Shown piece by piece: positions 17,801 to 61,248 of a DNA stretch of 64,000 bases; positions within the stretch are counted from its first letter, which is position 1; the number at the start of each line of letters is the position of its first letter. This DNA comes from an uncultured virus (IMG/VR IMGVR_UViG_3300025133_000091) (lineage: Duplodnaviria > Heunggongvirae > Uroviricota > Caudoviricetes > Crassvirales). The notes below the pieces were generated by a model. That model had not been told where the DNA came from. It worked only from the letters and a program-made list of their open reading frames with translations, and ran no database searches. The translations under genes were made by a program, and so were the position numbers. The stretch lies in the IMG/VR virus record IMGVR_UViG_3300025133_000091; one strand, written 5' to 3'.

Positions 17801-18956
17801 AATAATTATGTTGGTAGCCATCTGTTTCTATAATTTCAGTTAACGCTTTTTCTTGAACGCTATCTATAACATACTCTAAAGCTCTTTCATGCACTTCTTC
17901 TGTAGTTGGTTGGCTTTTGTTGCCATCGGCCTCATACTCCGCTTTTAAATCTTTTAAAGCTCTTTCTAATTCTTCTTTATAAAGTTGTACTTCGTATTTT
18001 TGAACAGACGATCCGCTTCCCACCCCCATAGTACTAACACCAGAGCTCGCTATCTTTGTTTTTATCTCTTTACCAAACAAAGTGCCTTCTTTAAACTTCT
18101 TTTCTATTTCTGTGATTTCTTCAGCGGCTAATTTATCTCTCCAAGCATTTATATCTTCCCAAGTTTTTCTCCTTGCTTTTTTAGCCGCGTCTTGAGCAGC
18201 CCAATTTTCATCAGTAGAATATTTGTTAACAAAATCTTTGAGGATATTAAAAGATCTATCTCGTCCTTCTTCTTCACTTAAACCCGGAGACATAGGTGTC
18301 GCTATTTTCTTTACTTTTGCTTCAGTATATTGTTTATCATCTATCGATGATTTGTATCCTACTGTCCTCCCATTTTCAATAATCGGACTAAAGTATTCTT
18401 CGGCAACCGTTGTAGTTTTTCCATTTTCATCAATAATTTCACGTGGCTGGATTTTTCTTTTATATTTCTTTCCTTTGCTGTAAAGATTTAAACCGCCAAT
18501 ATTCATGTCAAATGTAGCAGAGTGTTTACCGTCTTGAGTAGAAATTTCAACAGCATCTAATCCACTACCTTCTTTAGATCCCAACCTTACTTCTTCAAAA
18601 TTAAACCCAGGATATAACTCTTTTAACTTTCTTACAGCCTCTCCTTCACCTTTATTAAACAAACTAGTGTGAGCGTCGATGTTATAACCAACAACATCTA
18701 GTGGTGAAGCGTAGTCTGATGACGATAAGATAGTTTCTGGGTTATACGCAGGGACTTCAGTGGCTGCTCCAGTAAACTTATTTACAGTAAACTTATTTTC
18801 GAAAGTATTAAAGTCACCTGTAAAATCACCATCATTTACAATACCAGCGTGTAGTGTTTTTCTGTAATCTAAGTCTTTAAATTTCTCTTGAAATTGCTCG
18901 AAACTACCGTAAAAATAACCATCATCATATAAACCTTGATATAACTCTTCTAACAT
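8805..18956 (-). CDS. giant polyvalent virion (ejection) protein, 3383 aa, with a zincin HEXXH motif, a sigma-like segment and a HAD phosphatase domain
   Basis: THEVGHS at about 15837-15851. HAD motifs LDFDDTL, ILTARP and FADDA at about 10975-11400. Lies in the late operon after the ejection-type genes. Confidence 0.7.
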   Translation of the reverse strand: MLEELYQGLYDDGYFYGSFEQFQEKFKDLDYRKTLHAGIVNDGDFTGDFNTFENKFTVNKFTGAATEVPAYNPETILSSSDYASPLDVVGYNIDAHTSLFNKGEGEAVRKLKELYPGFNFEEVRLGSKEGSGLDAVEISTQDGKHSATFDMNIGGLNLYSKGKKYKRKIQPREIIDENGKTTTVAEEYFSPIIENGRTVGYKSSIDDKQYTEAKVKKIATPMSPGLSEEEGRDRSFNILKDFVNKYSTDENWAAQDAAKKARRKTWEDINAWRDKLAAEEITEIEKKFKEGTLFGKEIKTKIASSGVSTMGVGSGSSVQKYEVQLYKEELERALKDLKAEYEADGNKSQPTTEEVHERALEYVIDSVQEKALTEIIETDGYQHNYSYKIGGDGGRNKATKAEKYTIAAKEFDVDFNKDYSLLTAKALELDNGVEITRFNEINSQLEDPDFVFDIMPGESVVTLQGGRQIPERIFNEFKGLNVKINNKIKAFKSFQEKVMEKAVQYSDNAAAIDIARRNYNGLEKFLTTIALGTTEMFFNATIGMNLMGGGENKDAIEFLSDFKTSTSEIRESYAKDVEFDNAFDSLTNFGTFMAQEIANQIPVFAALAIPGVGAATLGLSAFGEHYTDLSIERNSEGGRQLSNAEMWWMSAGFGASELVFESLTTIPLLKAAKRGFSITPGKKTLLDQTVGKYFKKNIGKTVYGIASEPIGEGMTQLTQNIIDGKPLTQGLDHAMFSGLMFGTTLSVAPFARGLYLSQFNDHAANIEYRQRVDKLKNLNKTNLNIKINLKAGITNAGTQADINNNNKIIADLQAENETHVREQEALVNSLSDDATKYYFALNSELEGIKNEAIEVDNNTTLTDQQRNDRLKVLQVKFDSKQRQKDFFRDKNAFGNEWDAYSGLDENADDVAALKKQAGDDLVNVNLEATKGRRKEPTEIEINQRAKFLYNVRKIKRDHAANSKAGLTNTKLFETNEDAIAWVEKQTNISEAAKAEFFKGVKDGNVHGANIPTQDGQVPFIVANNMAMDDRLETRTHEVGHSVFVKAIGSNPAAFKELSGQITEYLKQANPAAYKRLQFRLNQAGAIKDKLYDETIMVFLEEVASGKVDIAKSKQAGFLANLMNKGIEKVGGRKIDLKGETDAINFLIGIAKKIKAGTIDTKDIQAIRENRIAKQAAESAPKTKSEPATKFSKNQTNAVNELADMGWTNKTWKEQGADFAIKEMQSNKMLDGLIRSKYKADIVPDNFVDLVYSELVNHVKNFKPEQNDNLFGWINSQIANKAGNVYNREFKVADEMKGAKDIGKTTKEGEVKVQVAAEKSAEMEAFEEEDLSIEGQAKKEKADKQRYSEFRKKLGFETGSKIYNEVLDNVKKSLMMAYSTTQNITDVQLRAKAIAAKLKKEYANLNSPLFKQIKNFLTYGVADVHVKRGTKDTYISNLKKFREDIVKNISTADLVQMERNTPEADRIFTNFVKTLTSIEQVQDAVNREQLPPEALNKITKDKKTGKGAFSPSLYNKIMPTETELVSWADQPGINPVTGSRQGLKGTRKDGIAMRMVNGLVTDAIMEARQSEEVQSKIAEMDIDPGSVAELGAAIGREVNVKFSKSNAIGDISAAIDGTGDVNVYSQIKFSKSHREAYEKQLTKRRPDLTEDQRKNAVQSVFDFVDGKEIPNHKKSKYEKMAMHYTANGFLILPEDGYKVIEAERIATQKKIDPFSFKNPNELIETFVGEVKGARTNPDKVKAFTNKTELTDGVTIYDVEDSKQGQKDVRKVIDTHFGKKSNPWCLAARQEQVGMEETIDGRENAITFRDGLIDEGYVIEDFSKVEDYGEGEYYRIEFTSKQKGELGQAWQHWKQYNQEGNGHKIAFHDGKLIAFRDGNNMEWWDRNDKSTNAPVIRGKKDKDGFKPVSLVYKNKSEVIRYEKVTGDKKNGTITLKDGDGDFISQKTKKNGRTDGVSIEVDNKNKRSNNYNLKRTQNFKEGQRLDFKEERTYNNPIATEKVSFGRDEIRVDNITKYERSLIEKDWTMQAETITIEGTVNQKYFEEFQDPSKLVGFEKANIKYLTPAYERYYGIQGKKVKIVVKTIVEGASLNQLQTGETTIVTIDGVVQETNLRFSKSDVKFSRVQNANEFSLFTPSKKKKIGVYLQNLENVQEDGLTKDFLTMTRELVEDGFGLIEVFETVKAELGLVNVGIDAVLANGTLGKIHIDNIIKDIKEFGVAKIRKLGHDSSVKHLKRKLANIKNTERKIEIINEYLANVGRPTRSAKVEGITTNQLLLEEVIENLSEDVKGNYRATTIAQDKNKPEAEQRKKMQYKDGKTWKDVELYENVENIKNNAHNDTELANKVNEQAVKAQAYIFKIADSKSLTITEKKAIVQLMAYDQRGALRKIAKIGMVVDRSVSDLDSKKTVLEHEITNNDMQGYVNDYIDGKISKVKLQEIFDEARVHVLPKALDRILNSERLRRKGGRSRYNNAAFKDALQKLVDNKVIVNAKFSKSQDFQKLDKAIMFSRSTNNESKGITVLDFDDTLATTKSMIRFTRPDGTKGTLNAEQYASTYQELTELGYKWDFSEFNKVVDGKKAPLFEKALKLQDKFGPENMFILTARPAESAAAIHAFLKANGLNIPLKNITGLGNSTADAKALWVAEKVGEGYNDFYFADDALQNVKAVQNMLDQLDVKSKVQQARVKFSKNMDTEFNDILEDVTGMESKKRFSAIKGRKRGSNKGKFRFFIPPSHEDFVGLIYNFLGKGKKGDAHRNFFEKALIRPLNRANKELDAAKQNVANDYKALNKQFPGIKKKLNKKTPDGDFTYQDAIRVYIWNKHGYKIPGLSETDQAKLSELVMEDAELQAYAETLNVISKREGYVKPTEGWEAGDIRVDLDDATGREGRADYLAEFNENVDVIFSEENLNKIEAIYGKNVRSAIEDSIYRIKTGRNRPSGQNELTNRFMNYLNAAVGSVMFLNMRSALLQQLSIVNYINFADNNMFAAAKAFANVKQYREDWVKIFNSDMLKQRRGGIQTDVNAADLVKELSGKDFTGRALLAKLLQLGFTPTQIGDSIAIATGGATFYRNRVNTYLKEGLNQKEAEAKAWTDFQDITQSTQQSARPDKVSQQQASPIGKVILNFQNITSQYNRITKKALSDIYNRRTTPGNTSLIQSDISNASRVVYYLGVQNLIFYGLQTALFAVMFDDDEEEDKVTKKQERIIHGTIDSILRGSGVMGAVVATLKNIARQWMKERGKDYNPDESSVLLELLNVSPVLGIKSRHITLGEKTLNYNKKVIKEMETFDIDNPMWSAYTRYIEGITGAPTYRVYQKVQNMQEVLNNQHTALERILMFWGWTQYNLDIENKEIQEIKDRLKKDKKKSKKKKKPLSREEIRRKNLLKSRR

Positions 18957-24043: not shown

Positions 24044-27000
24044 TTAATCGTTTAGTGTAATAGTTATTGTAGCTGACTCAGAATTTCCACAAGAATCACC
24101 ATCGTTGTTCTCACAAACTGCTATTACTTGAAAATCGTAAGTACTTTCGTTTAGGAAGTAGTTAAAATTAGTGTTGTAAGTGTAGGAAGCAAGACCGCTA
24201 TTTATAGTAGGTGAAACAATAGAGATGAATCCAGGAGGAGATGCTCCATTGTCTATTAAAATTGCGTAAGAGGTAGCTGTATCCACCGAAGCAAAGTTAA
24301 ATGTAATTTGTGTTGCGTATGTAGGGGTGATTGGATCATTCCAAGTGTTAACAACAACAGGATTAGTTGCATCAAAAGTAGGTTCATCACAAGTATAACA
24401 ACAGCAATCGTTAGGGTTTGTACTACCATCAAAAGTACAATCTTGATTAAATGCAGCATCATAGTTAGTTGCCGTAGCATCCATACATCCTGGGTTAGGA
24501 GCTATACAACTACCATCAATCTGAAGGTCTAAATTTGGGTTATAGTTCATAGCTGAAGCATCCGTTTTACAACCCGCTGAGAGCACGAAAGTATTTGAAG
24601 TACTAGTCGTTATTACATCGTTCATAGAAGGATTAATTATTGGTCCTGACCAATCAGCATGATACGTTATAGTTAAATCACCACTTGCAACGCCATAAGC
24701 TCCATTAATATCAACATGTGGTGCCCACTCATTTTGCTGAACAAGACCCGAGAATGCTTGCGTACCACCACTCCAAGTCACTCCACTCTGAGATGGATCG
24801 ATCTCAATTCCTGGATTAGTAATAGTAGCCGTGTTAGTTCCAACGCCAAGATCTATAGATGTAACTAAAGCTGAGTTGTAAGCTGTACCATAGTTGTCTC
24901 CAGTAGCTCTAATACGTTGGTAAGCGGTGCTTCCCCCAAAACCGAATCCTTGTAGTTCGCTCACAAGCGGCGTTCCAGTGTAAGTACAACAACTGTTATC
25001 ATTAGTCCCATCGTTACAAGGTGTGGTAGCGTCAGGATCATAATTATCCGCTGCGTATAAACCAAATCCATCAGCATTTAATGTAGCGTCCATACAACCA
25101 GCGATAACACAAGAACCATCATCACAACCAGCAGCTGCATCATAATTTGAAGCAGTTGGATCTGTACATCCACCATAAGTACAAGAACCATCATCTATAG
25201 TCGCTCCTGCGTTGAAATTACACGCCGTAGCATCAATACATCCTGAATATGTACACTGTGTGTTGTCCGATATATCAAAACCAGTGGCATTAGTAGCCGC
25301 ACTATCAGCACAACCAATAGTAAATGTTTGCGTTTCTGTTATAGAACAATTACCATCAACTGTTATAACGTTAAATACTATATCAACGGTAGTAGAAGGA
25401 GGAGATACAACCGCAACGTAGTTCATTGTTGGCTCACTTGTTTTAACCCCAATAACGGTATTACCACTCATTCCACTACTCCAAGGGTTTAGTGTTACAT
25501 TATTACCATCAATAGTAGCGTTTGTACCTGACCCATTCCAATAGGCGGAGGTGTTAGGATACGGGGTGTTATATGTGTTTATTTTAAAAGTGGTGTTAGT
25601 AGAACTTTGTGTAATTTCTATTGTTGGGCAGTTGTAAGGATTACAAGAACCATCATCTACATTAGCAAGTGCATTGTAATTTGAAGCCGCATAAGTTCCA
25701 TCGTTGTTTAACGTATCATCCATACAACCTGGAATAGCAGTAATACAAGAACCATCATCTACGGTCGCAGCAGGATCAAAATTTATCGCAGTTACGTCCA
25801 TACATCCAGGAACTATAAGAGTCAAACAACTAGTAGGAATTGTATCAGCAACCCAAGTACTTCCACCACCAACTACAACAACTTGATTAACAGCATCCCA
25901 ACAATCACCACAAAATTCTAAGAACGTATTATCGTTACAACCAGTACATGTTGCGTATTCACAAGTACCATCATCTACTGTTGCAATAGGATCATAATTA
26001 CAAGCGCCCCAAGTTCCACCAACGTTATTATTTGCTCCAGTGCCATCTGTACAACCGGGTATTGGAGTTGACGTAATTGTTACACTTGTGCTAACTGTAG
26101 ATCCAAGAGCTAAATTACCAGCGTATAAGCCAGTCATGTCGCAAAGACCACTTAACGTTATTGTAAGAGTCCCAGCGGGTAAACCAGTTATTGTATATGT
26201 TCCTGTACCAGTTCCTGAATCAAGGATATCAACAATATTTCCTAGATAACCTAATTGATAGTAGTTTATCGTTGGGGAAGTGGACTCTGTCCACTCTATA
26301 ACAACCTCTCCATTACTCATTCCAGCATCAGCTGTTGTTTGAGAGATTATTTGAAGGTTTGTAGGTCCATAACAATACTCACAACCAGTTGTACAACTTG
26401 GGTCTGCGCCATCGTTGTTGATTGTACTAACATCTGTGTCTCCACAATAATTACACAAACCGTTGTCAACCGTAGCTGATGCATCATAGTTACATGCTGT
26501 AGCGTCCATACAACCACCAATGTAAGTGCATAGGCCATCATCAACCGCAGTACCATTTAGATAAGTTAAATTTCCATTAGGACCATCAACAACCGGTGAA
26601 CTACCTGTAAAGCTATAGTTTGTAGCTATAGGATCAGTACATCCTAAATATTCACAACTTCCATCGTCATAATTAACATCTGTCATCTCGTCAACAGGCG
26701 TAATGTAGTTATCAGCAGTTGTATCAGTACAACCAGGTATTATAGGAATACACATACAATCAGCGTATCCACAAGAAGTACCGTCACTTAAAATTCCTGA
26801 ACCAAAGTTTGCTGATGGGTTATAATTCCAATTACCTGAAATAGTACATCCCCAAACAGCTGGGATACAACTACCATCATCAACAGTTGCGTTAGAGTCA
26901 AAGTTCATCGATCCACCCGCCGCTTCTTGAGACCAAACAGCGAGAGGTCCTGTTGTACAACCTAACCAATAACAAGTTCCATCGTCTGTATTAGCACTTG

Positions 27001-30000
27001 GAAGGTAGTTATCAGCGCTAGCATCTGTACACCCATGGTTAAAATCAATACAAGAACCATCATCATTAGTAGCAGCGTCATTATAGTTAAACATTGTATT
27101 GTCCATACAACCGAATACAACACTAGTTGTTGTACCAGCAGTTCTACCTATACCTTGTATACTAGAATCTTCAGTATCATAGTTACCTGACACGTTACCA
27201 GTAGGGTTTATAGTAACATCGTTACCTGTAACATACCCAAACCACTTACCTTCTTTATTTATAAACTCAGTTATACCACCTTGTTCTAAATTAGTAATAA
27301 CGTTAGTAACATGCCAACCTTCTACATCTGCTAGATTAAAATATTCGTTATCACCAGTTTCTTTTGTTACTTTAGCTTGTGAACCCTCGTAGTTTACAGT
27401 TTTAAAAGATTTTACACTTCCAGGAACCTCGTTAAATACAACCTCTAAAGTTGATGGCACAAGATCTTGATCATAAAAAGTATTTCTATTAACAAACTCA
27501 TCGTGGTGTTTCCATATATTACCATCTTTAAACGTGTAATATTCATTAGCACAGCTAATAGCATTTTCAGGTGTAAATGATTTGAAACTCACCCAACCTT
27601 TTACATCTTCTTTAAATGTAACTGTTTTAGCAATAGTATCACCTTTTATAGTAACATTATATTCATCTTTTTTATCGTCATAACTACCAATTAGTTTATC
27701 ACCTAGTTTTAGGTGATCTCTAAACCAATCTTTCATACCGTGATTTGATATAGGTGTTAATCCGTCCATAGACAACCTCATAACAGTACCTCTAACTTTA
27801 TCGGTGAAGTAAATTCTATAAGCTTCCGATGCAAATGATTCTGGGTTTTTAGATATACCATACTCACCAGAATAAGGGATAGCTTGACCTAAAACATTGT
27901 TTGTTGAAGTTACATTTGTATTTCCATCAGCGTTGAATAAAGCGTCTTTATTTGCTAATATTTTTAATACTCTATCTTCACAAAGCGCTACTAAATCTCC
28001 ACCCTGTCCCCATCCACTATGTAGTTTTTGTATACTACCGTAAATAGGGTTTATATCTTTTGTAATTTTTTCAGCAGCTATAAATTGATTAAAGTTGTTT
28101 ACACCGCTAGTGGAATTATATATACCAGAATATATTAAACCATATTTTCTACGTTCCTCTTCATACGGCTCATCAAGAATCGTGGACACTGTTGCTCCAT
28201 TATCAATTTTAACAGCGTTAAAATCATCTCTTATTCTATTTGATTCTACACCATTGTTAAAAGAATAACAATTACTCCAAGACAATCCTTTTGGTAAACC
28301 TAACAAAAACGGTTTTACGTAATATTGGTAGTAATCTAAACTACCAGAGGTATTTAAAGGATTTGAAGCGTCAGCATCAGGATAAGTTGCTGTAGAAGCG
28401 CTTGTCCAATATTCTACTTGCACTTCAGAACCGTCTTGCAACGTAAACATTAAATTGTAACCATTGTTATATGTTAACGGTTTGTTTGTTACAATAACTA
28501 TATTTGGACCTATCTGTCTACTTTGCCAATCAACAACTATTGTTCCTGGATCCACAGTTCCAGTTGAAGTTGTGGAACTAACAATAGAACCAACTGGTAT
28601 TGTTGTTAACGCGTTTTCCTTACTAATACTAAGCTGATAAGTTCTGCTAGCCTCGTAATACACGTCTAGATCCGTAGATTCTTTTGGCTCCGTCTCCCAT
28701 ATAGATGGATCGATTGATGAATCAACACCAAAACCATCAAAAACCATTTTTGCTTCTAAAAATATTATTCTGGAAAGATTTGTGTTTATACCAGGCGTGT
28801 CCCAAACTCCAGCATATCCAGGAATCCCGACAGCATTACCAATAGTTGGAGTAAAACCACTGTCTCCAATGTTTTTGTCAAGCTCTAAGCTCCACGTAAT
28901 CCTATGGTTTGCGTTGTTAGTGTAAGCGCTACTGTGGTTAATGTTTGTACTCGCGCTATGTGGGTAATTACTTTGATAGCCACTTAGGTCTGAAGCACCT
29001 GGATAAGTGTCGTCATAATAACCTTCTGAATAATTATTTTTAAGCGACACAGACACACTTACAATTGTAAAAACTTCATCTGTTGGATCATCAGCAAATT
29101 TAAACTTATTTCCAACCACAAGCTGCTCCCACACATCCCAGTAGTCATCTGGAAGATTATACCTCATGTGTAATTGATCAAAAAAGTTGATCCATGTAGC
29201 TGGTTGCAACTTACCCTTAGTCTTCCACTCATCATGTATACCACCAATAAACGACAAATCCAACCTGTTACTACGACCCGTGTTGGCCCCAGCCCCATTA
29301 CCCAAGTGAAAATATTGATATGCACTAAGGTTTGAACCGTGATTTAATAGCGGAATATCTATGGTCGGGTAGCGGTTATCACCACAAACGCCAGGGGTGC
29401 TGTAACTAGTGTTGTCATCTTGAGGCACACAACCAGTAAGTTCTGTTAAAATGTTTTCGTAATAAGGGAAGTTATAAAGCGTTTCCATATCCGTGTCAAC
29501 ACCCGCGTTATAATCCAATGTAATTTGTGGTGCTGAAGCAGAGTTCCAACCTCCAAAAAGAGATTGTTGGTTTCTTTCTAATATATCGGTTCTTGATTGT
29601 TTTCCATCTTCTCCCCACTCAGCACTTATTCCCAAACTATCAATACCATCAACTGCGGTTGCAAAAGCCTCGTCAATAAACCATCCGTTAGCGTTGGAAC
29701 CATGTGTCTTTCTTAATATGTATCCCCATGTTTTGGGGTGATAATAAGATTTAGTTGGAATAGGCACACCGTCCATAGTGCCTCCACCAGTATACCTAGC
29801 CGCCGCCCACGAGTGGGGTAAAGCACTGATTTGCGCCATAATACCACCCATTGTTGGAGTAGACCCACTCATCGCGTCATAGAAATTAGCTTGAGTTTCG
29901 GTCGCTGTTAAACCACCAATATCCTCTTGGCTATAATCTTTTACGTACCCAAAATCGTGGTTCAAGCTAGATACTAATTGTTCTGTTCCAGTGTTAGATA

Positions 30001-33000
30001 ATACTTGTTCATAGAAACTAATATCTTTTAGTATTTTAACAAAAAATCTACCGTTAAACTCAGCTTTATTTTCTCTAGGTATTAATTTTCTAATCTCTAA
30101 AACTGGCGCGCCATTAGTAGTTGGCACGGTAACAGTACCCGACTGATCCGTAAAAAAGAACTCCGCGTCATTATTAAAAGGTTCTGCTAAATGAAATGTA
30201 AATTCGCTAACGCGAGACTGCCCACTTCCACCGTCATCTTCAAATAAACCTGCTTGTCTGTAATACGTAATATCCTGTAGCTTATACCATTTAGTAGTGT
30301 ACTTTCCTTGTTCAGTCTCACTACTACCTACGGGTTTAATAGTGCTTAGTCTAATCTCTACTTCGTGATCTTTAGATATTAACGACCTTAATTTCAACCT
30401 ACCAATAGCCGGTGTGTTATCAAAATGTGTTCTACCTATTAAGTGTAATTTATAATGACCCGGTAATCCGTTTATCAACACATCGCTTTCGTAAACTTTA
30501 TTATTGTAATTGTCAGGATCCATAAATAAACCACCATCATCATTAGCATCCACGTCTATTATGTCGAGCGAACCTCTGCCGTAGTTAGTTGCGTTAAATG
30601 AATCTGTTCCTTGTACAAATTTTCCAACATTTTGCTTGTCTACCTTTACATAGTCTGGCACCTCGTTGCTAATATCTAGTATTTTATATCTATAATCGTT
30701 TTTAGCCAACTGGTCTGAACCTTGTTCTTTTTTTAATATTAAATACGTTTCATCATCCACTTTGTTCCTGTCTGACGATGGAAACGATAACCAAACGTTA
30801 CCGTCCTCAGCATCATAAAATCTATCCATAGCTAGATTATAATAGTCAGAAGACGTTTCTTTTATATAAAACTTATAAGAATCTACCCAAGAAGGAAGTT
30901 GATAACCGTCAATCGGGTACCACTTGATATTAAAACGATTATTTCCGTCAGCCTTGTCTTTATCTATTGTTATTTTAGAATTAGCCGAAGTTATAATAGG
31001 TGTTTCTCTACCATATTTATCCGCAAACATAATACCAATATCATAATCTCTTAAAGACTTTAAACTCTTACTTACGCCCGTGGAACTATACGGGGTAACC
31101 CAAGACCTAAGGTTAATTTTATTTTTATCAATACTATAGTTTTGTAAGTAATTAGCGTATACAATCCTATTACCAGTAACGTCTTGCGCGAGGGCTTTTC
31201 TTGGAACATTGTCATAAGGGCGTAGCAATTGGTTTGACGGTAAAGTGTGACTAATACTTTCCGCGGTTATAAGATAACCGTAATCATCAGTAAGTTGATT
31301 AAATAATTGTGATGTAGGATCGGCTGGGAGTGTCGGTGGAATATTTACAATAGTATCTACCACATAGATGTTTGGCGAGTTAGATTCTTTGTACAAAATA
31401 TCAATAGCAACAACATCTTCAGGCATATCAGGTGTTATTATGTCTAACAACGTTAATCTAGAAATAATATTTTCCATACCAGAGTTATGGCCAACCCTAG
31501 CGTTAAACGAATAATTTCCAGGTTGAAAAGCTATTTCAGAAAAAGGAGAGAAAGGAGAGTACTGGTTGTCTTTATACTTGTATCTTGTTGCGAATCTTGG
31601 GAATTTAAGTCTATATAAAGGTTTAGTATCTTCCAACCAGTCGCACGCATAATCTAAAGTCCCAAGCTGAGCCCCAATAAGCGCAAAATTTACAACCTCA
31701 AGCGTAACATTAAACATCCCACTCAGACTCTGGCTCCCAATGCTTGTGATAACTAAAACCAATTCACTGTCAACCGCATTAATTGGATAATACTCTGATG
31801 GAGATGCGACACCGCTGTATGAATCAATGTTTTTAAGAGCTAAACTGTCTCCCTCTTGATAGTTCAACCCATCTCCAAAAGGAGAAATTATATCAACACC
31901 TGTAATAGATTGACCCACACCCACGCCTTGTAAATCAAGACCATATATTAGACCGTTTGAGTTACCATCTCTCGCGACGCCTACTCGTAACATTGGAGCG
32001 TTTTTAGGCGGAGATTTTATAGTAGTAACGTGTTTTTGTCGCGCCGCAACTTCTGTTCCTAAATCCGCACTGATATTCCTATCTTCAACTAATATGTTAG
32101 TGTGGACTAAACCACTTTGATCTGTACCATTTATACTATCATTTATATTTATACATTTTGGCTCGGAGTTATTGTCTGTCCAAAATAATAAATCGTCAAC
32201 AATGTTTATTCCTGTTACGGGGTATTTAATATCCAAATCAAGAGTTTGTGTTTCAAAAACCCAATGTGTAACTACCATACTAAGAGGCATCCATTGACCT
32301 AGATTTTTATATCCACAGCCTCCGCTTATGTAGGTTTGTTGCCACGCTGAAGGTTGAACAGAGCCAAATTCTTGAAAACTCACAGGAGGCTCCATGCACG
32401 CAAATCCACCTGTATTAACATTTAACTGAACTATACCTTGTATACGTGTTTTCCCAAAAGAATCAACCCAAGTACCAACTTCTTCTATCGACACAACAAC
32501 AGCGTTTTCCCAGTAATTTATTAGTTTATGATAATAAGGATCAAGTCCAAGGCCCTTAACGGTCATCCCTGGGTGTATGTTCGAAACGTCATATACCTCT
32601 AGTTGGTAAGAAGTCGTGTTTGTATAACCAGATCCACCAGTACCCCAACTTGAAAACCCAGATGACACTACAAGTGTGTCTCCAGAAACATAGTCATTAG
32701 AAGCCATATCAAACTGACTTTGACCCCCACTACCGGTTCCAGCCCCTTGCCAGGCAGTTACAGTTACAGACGCTTTATCTACAAACACAACGTTTATATT
32801 ATCATCTTTATGTTGTAGTATAATTGATTTAGATTCTTTAATCCAGAGAGGATTACTCGTAAAAGCCGCAAAGTTAGTTATCATGATATCTAACAAAGGA
32901 GAACTATTAGTATGAACTGATTGGTTAAGAGAAATAGTAGAATATGCCTGCATCTGATCCTTCCAAGTTTTCTCAGCCACAAGCCAATAAAAAGCGTCGT

Positions 33001-33229
33001 TTTTCTCATCAGATACAGAGCCAATACATTCGTGATCATTATAATCCAATAGAGCTTGGGTTTGCACTAGTGAGTTACCCAATATATTTTGAACAGTACC
33101 AACGTCAGATCCTTCTGAAGTTGAAACCTGTATGTTCATTGCATCTCTATATTCTCCTTTTGGAACAAGTCTTTGATCGACATCCTTGTTCATTTTACCA
33201 CCGGTAAAATTATGCTTGATCTCTGGCAT
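24044..33229 (-). CDS. tail stabilisation/nozzle protein with C-terminal Cys-rich repeats (3061 aa)
   Basis: N-terminus MPEIKHNFTGGKMNKDVDQRLVPKGEYRDAMN resembles crAss-related stabilisation proteins. About 17 GC(T/M)D..NY..A..DDGSC repeats. Confidence 0.7.
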   Translation of the reverse strand: MPEIKHNFTGGKMNKDVDQRLVPKGEYRDAMNIQVSTSEGSDVGTVQNILGNSLVQTQALLDYNDHECIGSVSDEKNDAFYWLVAEKTWKDQMQAYSTISLNQSVHTNSSPLLDIMITNFAAFTSNPLWIKESKSIILQHKDDNINVVFVDKASVTVTAWQGAGTGSGGQSQFDMASNDYVSGDTLVVSSGFSSWGTGGSGYTNTTSYQLEVYDVSNIHPGMTVKGLGLDPYYHKLINYWENAVVVSIEEVGTWVDSFGKTRIQGIVQLNVNTGGFACMEPPVSFQEFGSVQPSAWQQTYISGGCGYKNLGQWMPLSMVVTHWVFETQTLDLDIKYPVTGINIVDDLLFWTDNNSEPKCININDSINGTDQSGLVHTNILVEDRNISADLGTEVAARQKHVTTIKSPPKNAPMLRVGVARDGNSNGLIYGLDLQGVGVGQSITGVDIISPFGDGLNYQEGDSLALKNIDSYSGVASPSEYYPINAVDSELVLVITSIGSQSLSGMFNVTLEVVNFALIGAQLGTLDYACDWLEDTKPLYRLKFPRFATRYKYKDNQYSPFSPFSEIAFQPGNYSFNARVGHNSGMENIISRLTLLDIITPDMPEDVVAIDILYKESNSPNIYVVDTIVNIPPTLPADPTSQLFNQLTDDYGYLITAESISHTLPSNQLLRPYDNVPRKALAQDVTGNRIVYANYLQNYSIDKNKINLRSWVTPYSSTGVSKSLKSLRDYDIGIMFADKYGRETPIITSANSKITIDKDKADGNNRFNIKWYPIDGYQLPSWVDSYKFYIKETSSDYYNLAMDRFYDAEDGNVWLSFPSSDRNKVDDETYLILKKEQGSDQLAKNDYRYKILDISNEVPDYVKVDKQNVGKFVQGTDSFNATNYGRGSLDIIDVDANDDGGLFMDPDNYNNKVYESDVLINGLPGHYKLHLIGRTHFDNTPAIGRLKLRSLISKDHEVEIRLSTIKPVGSSETEQGKYTTKWYKLQDITYYRQAGLFEDDGGSGQSRVSEFTFHLAEPFNNDAEFFFTDQSGTVTVPTTNGAPVLEIRKLIPRENKAEFNGRFFVKILKDISFYEQVLSNTGTEQLVSSLNHDFGYVKDYSQEDIGGLTATETQANFYDAMSGSTPTMGGIMAQISALPHSWAAARYTGGGTMDGVPIPTKSYYHPKTWGYILRKTHGSNANGWFIDEAFATAVDGIDSLGISAEWGEDGKQSRTDILERNQQSLFGGWNSASAPQITLDYNAGVDTDMETLYNFPYYENILTELTGCVPQDDNTSYSTPGVCGDNRYPTIDIPLLNHGSNLSAYQYFHLGNGAGANTGRSNRLDLSFIGGIHDEWKTKGKLQPATWINFFDQLHMRYNLPDDYWDVWEQLVVGNKFKFADDPTDEVFTIVSVSVSLKNNYSEGYYDDTYPGASDLSGYQSNYPHSASTNINHSSAYTNNANHRITWSLELDKNIGDSGFTPTIGNAVGIPGYAGVWDTPGINTNLSRIIFLEAKMVFDGFGVDSSIDPSIWETEPKESTDLDVYYEASRTYQLSISKENALTTIPVGSIVSSTTSTGTVDPGTIVVDWQSRQIGPNIVIVTNKPLTYNNGYNLMFTLQDGSEVQVEYWTSASTATYPDADASNPLNTSGSLDYYQYYVKPFLLGLPKGLSWSNCYSFNNGVESNRIRDDFNAVKIDNGATVSTILDEPYEEERRKYGLIYSGIYNSTSGVNNFNQFIAAEKITKDINPIYGSIQKLHSGWGQGGDLVALCEDRVLKILANKDALFNADGNTNVTSTNNVLGQAIPYSGEYGISKNPESFASEAYRIYFTDKVRGTVMRLSMDGLTPISNHGMKDWFRDHLKLGDKLIGSYDDKKDEYNVTIKGDTIAKTVTFKEDVKGWVSFKSFTPENAISCANEYYTFKDGNIWKHHDEFVNRNTFYDQDLVPSTLEVVFNEVPGSVKSFKTVNYEGSQAKVTKETGDNEYFNLADVEGWHVTNVITNLEQGGITEFINKEGKWFGYVTGNDVTINPTGNVSGNYDTEDSSIQGIGRTAGTTTSVVFGCMDNTMFNYNDAATNDDGSCIDFNHGCTDASADNYLPSANTDDGTCYWLGCTTGPLAVWSQEAAGGSMNFDSNATVDDGSCIPAVWGCTISGNWNYNPSANFGSGILSDGTSCGYADCMCIPIIPGCTDTTADNYITPVDEMTDVNYDDGSCEYLGCTDPIATNYSFTGSSPVVDGPNGNLTYLNGTAVDDGLCTYIGGCMDATACNYDASATVDNGLCNYCGDTDVSTINNDGADPSCTTGCEYCYGPTNLQIISQTTADAGMSNGEVVIEWTESTSPTINYYQLGYLGNIVDILDSGTGTGTYTITGLPAGTLTITLSGLCDMTGLYAGNLALGSTVSTSVTITSTPIPGCTDGTGANNNVGGTWGACNYDPIATVDDGTCEYATCTGCNDNTFLEFCGDCWDAVNQVVVVGGGSTWVADTIPTSCLTLIVPGCMDVTAINFDPAATVDDGSCITAIPGCMDDTLNNDGTYAASNYNALANVDDGSCNPYNCPTIEITQSSTNTTFKINTYNTPYPNTSAYWNGSGTNATIDGNNVTLNPWSSGMSGNTVIGVKTSEPTMNYVAVVSPPSTTVDIVFNVITVDGNCSITETQTFTIGCADSAATNATGFDISDNTQCTYSGCIDATACNFNAGATIDDGSCTYGGCTDPTASNYDAAAGCDDGSCVIAGCMDATLNADGFGLYAADNYDPDATTPCNDGTNDNSCCTYTGTPLVSELQGFGFGGSTAYQRIRATGDNYGTAYNSALVTSIDLGVGTNTATITNPGIEIDPSQSGVTWSGGTQAFSGLVQQNEWAPHVDINGAYGVASGDLTITYHADWSGPIINPSMNDVITTSTSNTFVLSAGCKTDASAMNYNPNLDLQIDGSCIAPNPGCMDATATNYDAAFNQDCTFDGSTNPNDCCCYTCDEPTFDATNPVVVNTWNDPITPTYATQITFNFASVDTATSYAILIDNGASPPGFISIVSPTINSGLASYTYNTNFNYFLNESTYDFQVIAVCENNDGDSCGNSESATITITLND
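24400..27112 (-). repeat. coding repeats GC(T/M)D-x-A-x-NY-x-A-x-DDG(S/T)C, about 17 copies
   Basis: Counted by eye in the translation. Confidence 0.85.
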
Positions 33230-50616: not shown

Positions 50617-50874
50617 TTAATCTACTAGAACTACGTCACCATCACGAATGACCCGGTAAAGTACATCTTTCCATGATATGTCGTGTCCAGCATGTTTATC
50701 GTAATATATCGTATCTCCATCTTTTAGTCCTTCGACTAAATGTCCACACGATATTATTTTTGCTTTTATATAACGGTTGTCTTGATCAGTCTCGTCTGTC
50801 ATGATCAACCCAGCAACCTTTTTAGGCTCTGTCTTTATTCTGTCTACTATAATATATCTATTGATTGCTTTCAT
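50617..50874 (-). CDS. groES: co-chaperonin GroES
   Basis: MKAINRYIIV..AGLIM..GLKDGDTIYYDKHAG..DVV; adjacent to groEL. Confidence 0.8.
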   Translation of the reverse strand: MKAINRYIIVDRIKTEPKKVAGLIMTDETDQDNRYIKAKIISCGHLVEGLKDGDTIYYDKHAGHDISWKDVLYRVIRDGDVVLVD

Positions 50875-52426
50875 TCATTCTCATATTTGAAATTACACAA
50901 TCTGCAGATATAATTGTTGATACTACACTCACTGCATTTTTAAGTGCGGACTTGGTTACAAGTACTGGATCTATGATACCAGCTGAGATCATTGTAGCTC
51001 TTTCACCAGTTATAACATCAATACCATAACCTTCGTGATCTTCGTATCCATCCATCATAGTTATACCAGCATTATCAAGTACAGTGTAAAAAGGAGCTTG
51101 AATAGCTTTTAGTAGGATTTTCTCACCAGGTGTTTTAGCTTTAACCTTTTGAGACGCATTTAATAGTGCAACTCCACCTCCAGGAACAATTCCTTCTTTT
51201 AATGCTGCTTTAGTAGCGTAGATAGCATCTTCTATCCTATCTTTCTTTTCTTTAAGCTCTATCTTTGAATCAGCACCTACCTTAACCATTCCAACACTTC
51301 CCGATAGCATAGCTAGTCTTTGTCTGTGTTTCTTTTGTATAAACGGGTTTTTCTCCCATTTATCTATAGTTTTGTTAATACTAGCGATTCTCTCTTCCAT
51401 TTCCTCCTCTGGAGTCTCTATAGTGAGAACTGTATTCTTATCATCAGTAATTGCTGAGTAAGCTTCTCCTAAACAATCTACATCGATTAAATCAAGATCA
51501 TCACCCAATTGCTCGTTGATTACTTTAGCTCCAACTAAAAAAGCAAGATCTGCCACGGTATCGTCTTTAGTAGGACCAAAACCTGGCAAATCAACTATGT
51601 TAACTTTAATATTACCTTTTACCTTATTCATAAGAAGAGCTGCTTTAACCTGTTGGTCAACTGGAGCAACGATTAATAAAGGACGTTTGTTCTTGATAAC
51701 GTGCTCTAGTACTGTTTGTATTTTTCTTATGTTTGGTATTTCTGAAGACACTATTAATACTAATGGGTTATCAAGCTCACAAATCTGCTTGTCCTTATCA
51801 GTAACGAAATGTGGGGATGTGAGTCCTGAATCTACCTGTACGCCGTCAACTACTTCGACATATGTTTCTTCAGTTGGAGACTCTTCCATTAATACCACAC
51901 CATCTTTACCTACTTTAGTATAAGCTTCCGCTATAATCTTTCCTAGTTCTGTATCATTATTACAACTTATTGAACTAACAGATTCCAGCATATCGCCCTC
52001 GATCTTGACAGAAATCTTATCTAGGTAATCATTTACCTTCTTAAGACCGGATTTAATCCCGTCCTTAATTTCTCTAATGGTAGCATCGTTACCATTAACT
52101 TCTTTTAGCAATGATTCAGCAAGGACAGTAGCTGTTGTAGTACCGTCACCCGCTTCTCTCACTGTATTTCTAGCAGCCTCCTTAATTAAGGTAGCCCCCA
52201 TGTTTTCTACCGGATCAAATAAGACAACAGATTCTGCTACTGTTACTCCGTCTTTTGTTATTACCGGTAAACCTCTAGCATCTTCGTATATTACGCATTT
52301 ACCAGATGCTCCAAGGGTTGATTTTACTGCTTTAGCTAGTTTTTCAACACCAGCTACTATTTTATTTTTTGCGTTATCGCCAAAGTTCACGTCTTTGACA
52401 ATCTCGCTTGGATGATTGTATTCCAT
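50858..52426 (-). CDS. groEL: chaperonin GroEL
   Basis: ITKDGVTVA, AGDGTTTATVLA, EGIVPGGG and GIIDP motifs. Confidence 0.95.
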   Translation of the reverse strand: MEYNHPSEIVKDVNFGDNAKNKIVAGVEKLAKAVKSTLGASGKCVIYEDARGLPVITKDGVTVAESVVLFDPVENMGATLIKEAARNTVREAGDGTTTATVLAESLLKEVNGNDATIREIKDGIKSGLKKVNDYLDKISVKIEGDMLESVSSISCNNDTELGKIIAEAYTKVGKDGVVLMEESPTEETYVEVVDGVQVDSGLTSPHFVTDKDKQICELDNPLVLIVSSEIPNIRKIQTVLEHVIKNKRPLLIVAPVDQQVKAALLMNKVKGNIKVNIVDLPGFGPTKDDTVADLAFLVGAKVINEQLGDDLDLIDVDCLGEAYSAITDDKNTVLTIETPEEEMEERIASINKTIDKWEKNPFIQKKHRQRLAMLSGSVGMVKVGADSKIELKEKKDRIEDAIYATKAALKEGIVPGGGVALLNASQKVKAKTPGEKILLKAIQAPFYTVLDNAGITMMDGYEDHEGYGIDVITGERATMISAGIIDPVLVTKSALKNAVSVVSTIISADCVISNMRMNESNQ

Positions 52427-59753: not shown

Positions 59754-59900
59754 ATGAAGAAATTTTTAAAAGACAAGTCAGGTCCCATAATGATGGGAAT
59801 AGGGGCTATGCTATTAGTAGGTGATCTAATGGGTGTAGAAGGTATAATAACGTTCGCTGTTGGAATAATTTTAATAGTAGAAGGTGTAGATAGATTATAA
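59754..59900 (+). CDS. small two-TM membrane protein (48 aa, absent from the ORF track)
   Basis: MKKFLKDKSGPIMMGIGAMLLVG..IITFAVGIILIVEG; starts 1 nt after the previous stop. Confidence 0.5.
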   Translation: MKKFLKDKSGPIMMGIGAMLLVGDLMGVEGIITFAVGIILIVEGVDRL

Positions 59901-60254
59901 CATGGGAAAACAAGATAAAAAACTATTAAAAAATATAGAGAAATATGAAAAAGAGAAAGTTAAACAGCAAGAATCCAAAGTACTGGGACAAAAGCCAGTT
60001 AAACAAACAAGTGGAAAAGAAAAGAGTACACGCGTGCACAACTCCTAATGGATGTAAAGTATACGCTGTATGGTACAAATAGTGCTATACACACATAAGT
60101 AACGTGAGAAACTGGTTAGAAGTCCACACGTGAAAATCTCCTAAAGCGATAATGTAGAGGAACTTAAAGGTTACTACGTAGTCAATATGGAGAATCTCTT
60201 ACTGGTATTATGATGATACCTTTACACACAGCAATCATAGTGGTAAGAGATGGA

Positions 60255-60361
60255 TAACTAGGTATGGTACGCAGTGCGCTTGAATCAGTAAACGTTTTTA
60301 CGAGCTGATTAGCGAGGTCGTTACTGCTGACGAGTATGAGGTTCGATTCCTCACTAGTTAC
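60255..60361 (+). ncRNA. tRNA-like RNA A (107 nt), non-canonical
   Basis: Acceptor TAACTAG/CTAGTTA and T arm TGAGG-TTCGATT-CCTCA; the middle is one long arm with no D arm. Confidence 0.65.
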
Positions 60362-60453
60362 AAATAATATACGAGGTGAGTACAAGTGGCCGACTGAGTT
60401 GGAAAAAGATTAAGTACAACAAATCAGGTACTACGAAAACTTCGTTTTATATA

Positions 60454-60654
60454 GCCCAAGTACAAGGTGAACAGTAAATCTATGGTAATGTGGGAACAAC
60501 AACCGAAACTCGGTGGCTCTTATACTAAGAGACCGGCTGACCGAAACTCGGTAGATTGTTAACAAAAATAGAGCCTTGTCACTGTGCCTGAAGAGTCTGA
60601 AGATGGACAGGTGTAGTACTAGGAGAATAGGTGGTTCGAATCCACCCTTGGGCA
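60454..60654 (+). ncRNA. tRNA-like RNA B (201 nt), non-canonical
   Basis: Acceptor GCCCAAG/CTTGGGC and T arm GGTGG-TTCGAAT-CCACC; D and anticodon regions are expanded. Confidence 0.7.
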
Positions 60655-60657
60655 CAA

Positions 60658-60691
60658 CACAAACTAAATACGAATAAGTTTGGATAATATG
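60658..60691 (+). promoter_or_regulatory. promoter-like motif, copy 7
   Basis: CACAA ACTAA ATACGA ATAAGTTT GGATAATATG. Confidence 0.7.
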
Positions 60692-60716
60692 AATATAAAT
60701 AATTAAATTAAATAGT

Positions 60717-60887
60717 ATGGTAGAAATTACACAAGAACAATTTGAAGCATATGAAGATGTGCGAGAGTCTGGAGTTACTAATATGTTTGACGTTAGAACA
60801 GTTGGTCAACTATCCGGATTAGAAAAAGAAGAAATAATGACTATAATGAAAGGTTATAGCGAATTAAAAGAAAAATACGATGAATAA
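60717..60887 (+). CDS. DUF5049-like small protein (56 aa, absent from the ORF track)
   Basis: VRESGVTNMFD motif and an AATTAAATTAAAT leader. Confidence 0.6.
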   Translation: MVEITQEQFEAYEDVRESGVTNMFDVRTVGQLSGLEKEEIMTIMKGYSELKEKYDE

Positions 60888-61248
60888 GGAAGAACTAGAA
60901 AAAGAAGTCTTAACGCTAGAAAAGCAAATAGAGGCAAGTGAAACAGTGAGCAAGGCTTACCAAGCAGAGTTGGCGGCAGCTCAAAGAAAGTTAAAAGACA
61001 TCAATAAACCAGAGTTAACTCCACTACAGTTTGACTTAATAAATGAGGCTATTGAGAGAGGTGTTGATGACTTTGATTTCAGTGATACAGCTAACTTTGA
61101 TATTGAGTTCGGCATCGAATATGATAACAAGGTATATTGTGAAAGCCATGACCTTAACGAGACTCGTGAGTTAATCGATAAGATAGCTGAAGAAGTTTAC
61201 AAGTTATTCACTGAAGCTGAGTGTCCTGAAGAAGAAATATCAGAATAA
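60880..61248 (+). CDS. hypothetical protein
   Basis: Acidic ORF with a coiled-coil N-terminus. Confidence 0.6.
   Translation: MNKEELEKEVLTLEKQIEASETVSKAYQAELAAAQRKLKDINKPELTPLQFDLINEAIERGVDDFDFSDTANFDIEFGIEYDNKVYCESHDLNETRELIDKIAEEVYKLFTEAECPEEEISE

Follow-up and report, generated by a model that had tools for sequence, protein, structure and literature searches.

The locus at positions 60454 to 60654 (plus strand) of an uncultured crassvirus genome (IMG/VR record IMGVR_UViG_3300025133_000091) raises a simple question: what is encoded by a gene that has the acceptor stem and T arm of a transfer RNA (tRNA), but no anticodon arm? We analyzed a 64-kb stretch of this DNA, hereafter the window, in which the gene spans 201 nucleotides (nt). 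A first-pass annotation, made from the letters alone, had described a non-decoding RNA on a tRNA frame that displays duplicated hairpins, for example as a decoy or sponge. Comparison with its relatives places the gene in a conserved, apparently uncatalogued RNA family of uncultured aquatic, mostly marine, phages. As judged from these sequences, the family keeps an invariant internal core within a five-helix fold whose acceptor stem and T arm are of the tRNA type. The overall best explanation, which we hold with moderate confidence, is a non-decoding tRNA-shaped mimic that is probably matured by the host and acts through this core.

The RNA family and its shared fold

An exact search with the T arm and acceptor stem retrieved two viral contigs, and the resulting alignment consisted of conserved blocks between two variable stretches. 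The most conserved block, UAUGGUAAUGUGGGAAC, a core motif of 14–17 nt, served as the probe for viral contigs, metagenome contigs, and one genome per prokaryote species; all counts that follow are among the matches listed. The 374 motif matches were screened by a script for a 5-base-pair (bp) stem with a NUCRANN loop, followed by 7 nt that pair perfectly upstream. At least 62 loci passed this screen, representing at least 54 distinct complete sequences of 121–402 nt. Complete members accounted for 15 of the 135 viral matches (some contigs were fetched more than once) and 46 of the 118 metagenome matches; none was present among the 120 matches from prokaryote genomes. Eight more loci hold members truncated where a contig or locus ends, including L222, which has an imperfect acceptor stem (L-numbers are labels of loci or contigs). 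All complete and partial members come from viral or metagenome contigs. A gapped pattern containing both core strands matched only seven IMG/VR contigs; the family is therefore uncommon in IMG/VR, and it is far better represented in raw metagenome contigs.

The members share a common plan (Table 1 gives the window RNA). The 7-bp acceptor stem and a 1-nt linker lead into an arm at the D position, which consists of helix P2a (7 bp, ending in an invariant U.G pair), a 5' bulge of 3–10 nt that mostly starts with GA, and helix P2b (5 bp, UCUAU/AUAGA; 7 bp, GGCUUAU/AUAGGUC, in the L012 type). Beyond P2b lie the core 5' strand GGUAAUGUGGGAA(C/G), the variable site V1, and the core 3' strand (N)AACAAAAAUA(G/A)A; the invariant core can be summarized as UAUGGUAAUGUGGGAA(C) ... 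AACAAAAAUA(G/A)AG. The internal loop of this arm is purine-rich, with GGUAA facing AAA, then UGU/ACA, then GGGAAC, and V1 forms the cap. After the 3' strand of P2a come a further 1-nt linker, the hairpin P3 at the second variable site (V2), a strand of 11–14 nt with the pattern GG..AAU, the T arm, the acceptor 3' strand, and a discriminator base that is A in 53 of 54 members. CCA is not encoded in any of the downstream flanks listed.

The variable parts of this plan differ widely. V1 measures 13–80 nt in correctly segmented members and is unrelated in sequence between them. P3 begins 1 nt after P2a in 33 of 46 folded members, its stem being free in sequence and length, and it is followed by 11–14 unpaired nt in 34 of the 46. 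The minimal members, at 121–130 nt, have a V1 hairpin of 3–4 bp and a tetraloop hairpin at V2; they contain the full core and no anticodon loop.

We aligned 36 members with MAFFT (alignment A3), with the structure written from the window sequence. Bases were paired in 99.7% of 972 cells and 17 of the 27 pairs showed changes on both sides; six of the seven P2a pairs covaried. No column shuffle out of 500 reached any of these measures, and 3' partners slid by 1–3 columns paired at 36–50%. RNAalifold returned exactly the same 27 pairs when no structure was supplied. A covariance model built from A3 (R1) matched the window, itself part of the seed alignment, at 139.8 bits (E 1e-35, model positions 1–174), and the next match in the 64 kb scored 7.9 bits. 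The R1-fitted alignment (A4), a fit biased toward the model, comprises 63 matches from 62 sources, including one ordinary tRNA (22.8 bits). In A4, 98.1% of cells were paired, 19 of 27 pairs showed changes on both sides, and the slid controls gave 35–47%. Both-side changes affected all seven pairs of the acceptor stem and of P2a, two of five in P2b, and three of five in the T stem, where the two inner G-C pairs are invariant. None of the three UGU/ACA pairs changed; they are invariant and hence uninformative.

The core columns are invariant while the sequences of the acceptor stem, P2a, and T stem vary, and the fold is strand-specific, with G.U pairs that include the invariant U.G. For the 201-nt window RNA, the minimum free energy was -64.7 kcal/mol, compared with -49.9 ± 4.3 kcal/mol for shuffled sequences (z = -3.41; 0 of 200 as low). 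We are confident that this is a real, selected, structured RNA of this architecture.

These comparisons also bear on the first-pass annotation, which had proposed its fold from a single sequence. Compensatory changes in homologs are present in both A3 and A4. The acceptor stem, T arm, discriminator, CAAGG/CCTTG pairing, long helix, CTCTTA hairpin, and both copies of the duplicated hairpin lie where it had placed them. Two assignments gave way. What it read as a canonical U8-A9 is, in relatives, a 1-nt linker of any base followed by the first pair of P2a, to which A9 belongs. It had also drawn an AATCTA/TAGATT stem; TAGATT falls within a variable module, and the conserved partner of UCUAU is AUAGA.

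Table 1. Features of the RNA gene and of the neighbouring non-coding DNA, numbered from the first letter of the window.
Feature	Position	Strand	Remarks
RNA gene, 201 nt	60454-60654	+	
Expected mature 5' end, G	60454		
Acceptor stem 5' strand, GCCCAAG	60454-60460	+	7/7 paired with 60647-60653; all 7 pairs change on both sides in the family
1-nt linker	60461	+	U in the window; A, G or C elsewhere in the family (segment table)
P2a 5' strand, ACAAGGU	60462-60468	+	Last U in the invariant U.G pair, 36/36 rows
CAAGG/CCTTG	60463-60467 / 60574-60578		
5' bulge, GAACAGUAAA	60469-60478	+	GAAU or GAUU in shorter relatives
P2b 5' strand, UCUAU	60479-60483	+	Partner AUAGA at 60568-60572
Invariant core 5' strand, GGUAAUGUGGGAAC	60484-60497	+	Columns constant in 36/36 sequences
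UGU/ACA pairing (Px)	60489-60491 / 60562-60564		Predicted by RNAfold and RNAalifold
Variable site V1	60498-60559	+	CUCUUA-UAC-UAAGAG hairpin between two ACCG-AAACU-CGGU hairpins
Hairpin CCGAAACTCGG (RNA CCGAAACUCGG)	60503-60513 and 60541-60551		
CTCTTA/TAAGAG hairpin	60517-60522 / 60526-60531		
A-rich conserved core 3' strand, UAACAAAAAUAGA	60560-60572	+	Contains ACA (Px) and AUAGA (P2b 3' strand)
P2a 3' strand, GCCUUGU	60573-60579	+	From alignments A3 and A4 and RNAalifold
V2/P3 hairpin, anticodon-arm position	60581-60617	+	10-bp stem, no 7-nt loop
V2/P3 helix, ACTGTGCCTG/CAGGTGTAGT (RNA ACUGUGCCUG/CAGGUGUAGU)	60581-60590 / 60608-60617		
12-nt single strand, ACUAGGAGAAUA, variable-loop position	60618-60629	+	GG..AAU conserved
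T arm, GGUGG-UUCGAAU-CCACC	60630-60646	+	Canonical
Acceptor 3' strand, CUUGGGC, and discriminator A	60647-60653 and 60654	+	CAA follows; CCA not encoded
Stretch of 634 nt without a credible open reading frame	60083-60716		Contains the RNA; lies among small plus-strand genes
Motif TATGGTACAA-N9-TATA	60069-60091	+	Upstream of the non-coding RNA cluster
Conserved stem CUCUUAC/GUAAGAG	60196-60249	+	Around a GGUAU-UAUGAUG-AUACC hairpin
Second tRNA-like RNA, TL-1	60255-60361	+	Acceptor UAACUAG/CUAGUUA; T arm UGAGG-UUCGAUU-CCUCA; ARAGORN-negative
Stem-loop cassette, ACGAGGU...ACUUCGU then UUUUAUAUA	60371-60453	+	Adjoins the 5' end of the RNA
Downstream ATG	60717	+	First gene of a run of small plus-strand open reading frames

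Exchangeable hairpins and neighbouring elements

V1 and V2 hold unrelated inserts even in close relatives, and the inserts recur at the other site or outside the RNA. Tandem ACCGAAACUCGG hairpins occupy V1 in the window and in L207, and V2 in L251 and L242; L002 has them in an intergenic stem-loop, and single-hairpin fragments of this module occur in V1 of L241 and V2 of L198. A GUAAUCGAUUUAAAACUAAUGCGC module is shared by V1 of L209, L185, and L229, V2 of L195, and the cassettes upstream of L199 and L140; two more modules are common to V1 and upstream elements. Within the 64 kb, CCGAAACTCGG matches twice, both times inside the RNA, where 0.32 matches were expected. From this distribution, the ACCG-AAACU-CGGU pair, the CUCUUA hairpin, and the anticodon-position helix are read as swappable modules at two variable sites. 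Such modules are most likely passengers that enter and leave two permissive tips by recombination.

Two neighbouring elements take part in this exchange. TL-1 is a second tRNA-like RNA with one variable insert between conserved GGUAUGG and UACUACUGACGAGUA strands and no anticodon arm. Its relatives are 76–115 nt long, the replacement of AACUAG/CUAGUU by AGCUAG/CUAGCU preserves their acceptor pairing, and the TL-1 insert of L233 is the module found in V1 of L176. The cassette has the frame ATATACGAGG...CCTCGTTTTATA(A)TA with differing inner modules and precedes many members with a GCCCAAG-type acceptor; it was found upstream of L199, L250, L196, L207, L140, and others, and is absent in L001 and L002. 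In outline, the cassette resembles a long stem-loop with a run of U and then a TATAAT-like box behind it, and its inner modules are those of the tRNA-like RNAs.

This exchange bears on the proposal that the hairpins themselves are the payload, i.e., that a tRNA scaffold displays the ACCGAAACUCGGU copies and thereby titrates a protein that also acts on intergenic stem-loops. The occurrence of the same modules in V1, V2, the TL-1 insert, and the intergenic cassettes of related phages would fit such a role, as would the presence in one locus of two distinct tRNA-like frames bearing such inserts; moreover, the ACCGAAACUCGG hairpins are paired in several members. However, the modules differ between close relatives, the minimal members of 121–130 nt keep the core without them, and the window hairpin occurs nowhere else in the window, leaving no local competing sites. 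Hairpin display also leaves the invariant core unexplained, and we consider it unlikely. The duplicated hairpins, which the first-pass annotation took for the payload, belong to the least conserved parts of the RNA, the exchangeable hairpins; what is conserved is the core. A decoy or sponge is a possible role, but one that belongs with the core rather than the duplicated hairpins, and a sponge based on ACCGAAACUCGGU hairpins could apply only to those members in which they occur.

Another explanation is that the fold serves as processing punctuation, recruiting RNase P and 3' enzymes to generate the ends of the flanking non-coding elements or of the downstream mRNA, with the excised RNA having no function of its own. 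The setting is compatible with this: the RNA lies between structured elements and the first of the small plus-strand open reading frames, two tRNA-like elements stand in tandem, and flanks are conserved both upstream and downstream. Nevertheless, an acceptor stem, T arm, and elbow suffice for RNase P, and a core of 17 nt plus 10 nt exceeds that need. The core is also kept across unrelated phage backbones and different flanks. We give this explanation little credence.

Other features of the region were also recorded. The hairpin loop within the conserved stem upstream of TL-1 can pair with AUCAUA downstream, giving a pseudoknot-like arrangement, and the element is retained in L002, L209, L185, and L233. 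The motif TATGGTACAA-N9-TATA, which also stands directly upstream of L012-type members, may be a candidate phage promoter. As a repeated promoter of the window it was rejected, with 17 matches at up to three mismatches against 17.2 expected. A scan for sigma-70 promoters and terminators gave nothing useful.

Four RNA libraries, each from a different study, yielded contigs that fall on parts of 59923–60906. One piece (60451–60719) comes from a relative with a different V1, other pieces span 60555–60719, and one contig joins 60363 to 60451, which is the cassette-less arrangement of L002. The deepest contigs (52.6 and 39.6, vs. about 5 elsewhere) lie at 60125–60264. We regard the contigs as a weak hint of expression; their uneven cover, with uncovered bins at 59800–59922 and 60907–61000, was discarded as evidence of anything.

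Comparison with known RNAs

As the first-pass annotation had foreseen, no known family matches the RNA. ARAGORN called no tRNA or transfer-messenger RNA (tmRNA) gene in the whole window and Rfam 15 gave no match at the gathering score. In E-value mode, the best Rfam result was a 15.3-bit match to tRNA (cut-off 29) that covers only the 3' third of the RNA (60586–60654).

The likeness to a canonical tRNA (RF00005) is nonetheless clear in the 7-bp acceptor stem, the 5-bp T stem with the 7-nt T loop GUUCGAAUC, the G53-C61 pair, the discriminator A, and the joining of four arms at one junction with 1-nt linkers. The differences lie in the rest of the molecule. A canonical tRNA has a 3–4-bp D stem with a 7–11-nt loop after U8 and N9. 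Family members lack all of these; in their place, a 1-nt linker leads into a 12-bp bulged arm (7 + 5 bp) with a conserved internal loop, which encloses 85 nt in the window RNA and at least 36 nt in the minimal forms. The 5-bp anticodon stem and 7-nt loop with U33 are replaced by a hairpin of free sequence, and the "variable loop" is a strand of 11–14 unpaired nt. On these grounds, and because even the minimal forms have no anticodon loop, the first-pass reading of a non-decoding RNA on a tRNA frame stands; that the RNA does not decode is very probable.

Alternatively, the gene could encode a genuine tRNA made oversized by introns or insertions, or a rescue RNA resembling tmRNA, which would be charged and enter translation once the inserts are removed. 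In the available text on the Lak megaphages of Prevotella (PMC6784885), oversized tRNAs are read as intron-containing; like the present RNAs, these are oversized tRNA-like genes of phages with Bacteroidota hosts, and their inserts vary in presence between relatives, much as V1 and V2 inserts do. The discriminator A and canonical T arm would also suit a chargeable RNA. In the Lak genes as described there, however, removal of the insert leaves an anticodon. Here, the insert-free members of 121–130 nt have neither a D arm nor an anticodon cloverleaf with its 7-nt loop. Relaxed ARAGORN runs (-i, -ps80) returned only forced models, i.e., a "Phe" tRNA with a 114-nt intron and a 1-bp D stem and a "Ser" tRNA across 60170–60362, and Rfam gave no match to a group I intron.

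For tmRNA, the resemblance lies in an acceptor stem and T arm without an anticodon arm and in a long helix leaving the junction. Unlike tmRNA, the 3' strand of this helix does not lie beside the T arm, and inspection by eye revealed no frame after the A-rich strand, such as a tag, that is conserved between members. The identity element G3:U70 is also lacking: position 3:70 is C3-G70 in the window and, across the family, C-G in 39, G-C in 17, U-A in one, and unpaired in one. ARAGORN made no tmRNA call, even in relaxed mode, and the only Rfam trace was a 12.2-bit partial match of beta_tmRNA to the T arm of one minimal member. We therefore rejected both identities, and an oversized tRNA or tmRNA-like RNA is very unlikely. 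Least credible of all is a decayed tRNA gene or a DNA element (an attachment site or promoter/terminator array) without RNA function: the lack of ARAGORN and Rfam calls and the wealth of stem-loop cassettes in the region would be in keeping with it, but compensatory changes keep five helices in 54 sequences on at least three unrelated backbones, and the fold is strand-specific with G.U pairs that include the invariant U.G.

Several other identities were tried. A self-cleaving ribozyme or riboswitch was rejected, as Rfam matches at E-values up to 10 were only noise (snoRNA-like and plastid untranslated-region matches); the upstream tRNA-like RNA contains a hammerhead-like CUGACGAG, for which inspection by eye showed no GAAA partner. 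The core 5' strand resembles the loop E/helix IV strand of Escherichia coli 5S rRNA (rrfH; L395, 57–176), with 16 of 19 positions alike over AUGGUA.UGUGGG..CUCC and 13 of 17 within the core. Mimicry of 5S rRNA was rejected: the 5S rRNAs of three Bacteroidota genomes match the core at only 10–11 of 17 positions, the opposite strand differs, and the loop is 5x3 here, whereas loop E of 5S rRNA is symmetric. A local loop-E-like motif in the core is possible. Bacterial Y RNAs such as YrlA presumably end in a Ro-binding stem and carry their tRNA-like part internally, whereas the family RNA ends in its acceptor stem, and no Rfam Y-RNA matched the window RNA. The two are alike in being non-coding and having a tRNA-like module, and YrlA is reported from phages too in the portion of the source available (PMC4201824).

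The core was also compared, by sequence alone, with the double T-loop module. As set out in the available part of PMC3664808, that module places its two T-loops, AG..A and UG..A, on different loops, and the purine two residues upstream acts as a platform. Set against that description, the core matches in part: it has two UG..A pentads (UGGUA and UGGGA) 3 nt apart on one strand, no AG..A loop, and an unmatched GNUG context.

The closest parallels are small stable RNAs of well-studied phages. T4 RNAC and RNAD and T5 RNA1 and RNA2 are likewise phage-encoded RNAs of about 120–145 nt in or beside tRNA clusters, and RNAC, RNA1, and RNA2 similarly have a T arm and paired ends with no anticodon. Their records annotate the T4 RNAs as small stable RNAs and the T5 RNAs as "tRNA-like stable RNA with unknown functions"; for the T4 RNAs, the accessible parts of a 2010 review (PMC3014915) and a 2022 omics paper (PMC9697503) still list the function as unknown. 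R1 scored T4 RNAC at 12.0 bits and T5 RNA2 at 13.0, no better than adjacent ordinary tRNAs (10.7–23.8), compared with 26–165 for family members, which places these RNAs outside the family. They have neither the UAUGGUAAUGUGGGAA/AACAAAAAUA core nor the two module sites. By sequence, the family is of the same kind as these RNAs but distinct from them. We found no description of the core or family in the literature. The core motif and two contig names were absent from the searchable supplements of a catalogue that, in its available text, comprises 10,006 candidate viral RNAs (PMC10690425); the rest of its supplements were not searched, and a prior listing there is possible.

Carrier phages and proposed role

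The window phage encodes a terminase, portal, virion protein, GroEL/GroES pair, and nucleotide-metabolism genes. Its terminase is 63.8% identical to that of the uncultured podovirus MW202828.1, 45% to Flavobacterium "elemo" phages, 38% to Cellulophaga phages, and 32% to a Tenacibaculum phage. Given these relatives, the host is probably a marine member of the Flavobacteriia. The DNA sequencing runs containing the locus are labelled as marine or viral metagenomes, and eight of them hold at least half of the sampled words. The nearest virus record, G001, does not include this region. R1 detected no member in MW202828.1, a Flavobacterium elemo phage, Cellulophaga phages phi18:3 and phi38:1, or Tenacibaculum phage Gundel_1, with a best score of 28.2 bits.

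Two of these genomes encode other tRNA-like RNAs that ARAGORN does not call. In phi38:1 (NC_021796.1, 20678–20817, minus strand; L383) there is a 140-nt RNA with a UCCUUAG/CUAAGGA acceptor stem; its D arm is normal, and it has an extra helix of 13 bp. In MW202828.1 (523–630, plus strand; L380) there is a 108-nt RNA whose D arm is of the Leu type and whose anticodon arm is replaced by a long helix. Elsewhere in the window, genes for a GroES-like (Cpn10, 85 aa) and a GroEL-like protein (522 aa) are adjacent at 50617–52426 (minus strand). Two giant open reading frames were also noted on this strand: one at 8805–18956 (3383 aa) has no Pfam match and the other, at 24044–33229 (3061 aa), has a sole Pfam match to the crAss muzzle C-terminal domain at residues 1914–2001.

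The family extends beyond this phage group. The window terminase was matched at 81–85% in the contigs of L012 and L392, but was absent from the complete contigs L007 (207 kb), L015 (188 kb), and L010 (48.5 kb). As judged from these contigs, the RNA family crosses phage types and is carried on at least three unrelated backbones. In the jumbo contigs L007 and L015, ordinary tRNAs form an array with the RNA at its head, and in several window-type relatives the RNA is directly followed by a tRNA. The window's own phage group has two acceptor types, GCCCAAG and GCGGGUG, the latter common to unrelated jumbo phages. The phages with terminases at 81–85% to that of the window (contigs of L012 and L392) thus include members with the GCGGGUG stem, whereas the window carries GCCCAAG; this suggests exchange of the RNA gene, or its stem, between phages.

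A course of events consistent with these observations can be proposed. The RNA would be transcribed together with the neighbouring non-coding elements at 60100–60654. RNase P and the CCA-adding enzyme recognize the acceptor/T-arm minihelix and elbow; host RNase P would cut before G60454 and free the RNA from the longer transcript, and 3' trimming would be followed by addition of CCA. We propose this last step because the discriminator is followed by C, yet none of the flanks listed encodes CCA. Maturation by the tRNA pathway is, in our estimation, fairly likely. The mature RNA may then act in trans as a tRNA mimic, its core contacting a conserved host or phage partner that handles tRNAs; candidates include defence or toxin enzymes that target tRNAs, enzymes of tRNA processing or modification, and the ribosome. 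Because the helices drift while the core is the same on unrelated phages, we assign the function to the core and assume that its partner is conserved. A trans-acting mimic or decoy working through the core nevertheless remains a tentative proposal.

Several points weigh against a host-matured mimic of this kind or the comparisons behind it. Acceptor and T-stem pairing were selection criteria, so the paired percentages reported above are partly by construction; the covariation of the acceptor stem, T stem, P2a, and P2b is independent of those criteria. Given that members are related to one another, the shuffle controls overstate significance. The core 5' strand was the search key, which inflates its constancy and makes diverged members invisible, whereas the A-rich core 3' strand and the architecture lay outside the selection criteria. 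The RNA-library contigs are silent on transcription, strand, and ends, and may reflect DNA carry-over. Comparison of the 61 open reading frames of the window with Pfam revealed no tRNA-processing, repair, or aminoacylation enzyme, and blastn searches with the locus, the RNA, and a minimal member found no match in 50,697 GenBank phage records; no cultured carrier came to light in these searches or with R1. Finally, with 12 bp separating the GGUAA loop from the junction, it is hard to tell whether any G's, and which of them, would dock on the T loop.

A more elaborate version combines the core with the exchanged hairpins in a "tRNA-scaffold platform". The docking core, possibly formed from the T-loop-like UGGNA pentads and the A-rich strand, would hold the RNA on a conserved piece of host machinery that handles or attacks tRNAs, and the two tips would capture mobile hairpin modules, which these phages also employ in intergenic regulatory stem-loops, so that lineages could re-programme the decoy cargo. 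We think this improbable. The swapping of modules at two sites, common to intergenic stem-loops and a second tRNA-like frame, is in any case an unusual mode of RNA-gene evolution, and has a counterpart in the "tRNA scaffold" with which foreign RNA hairpins are expressed in the laboratory.

The family could open the role of anticodon-less phage RNAs to experiment. The core is sharply defined and offers a target for mutation and pull-down, and natural minimal (121 nt) and expanded (up to 402 nt) forms of one RNA exist. The presence of the RNA on at least three unrelated backbones argues for a conserved host-side partner, rather than a lineage-specific quirk. Distinctive in its architecture, this family is new within a class that is known but still unexplained, the non-decoding tRNA-like RNAs of phages, and it indicates that standard tRNA and Rfam annotation overlooks a class of conserved phage RNAs.

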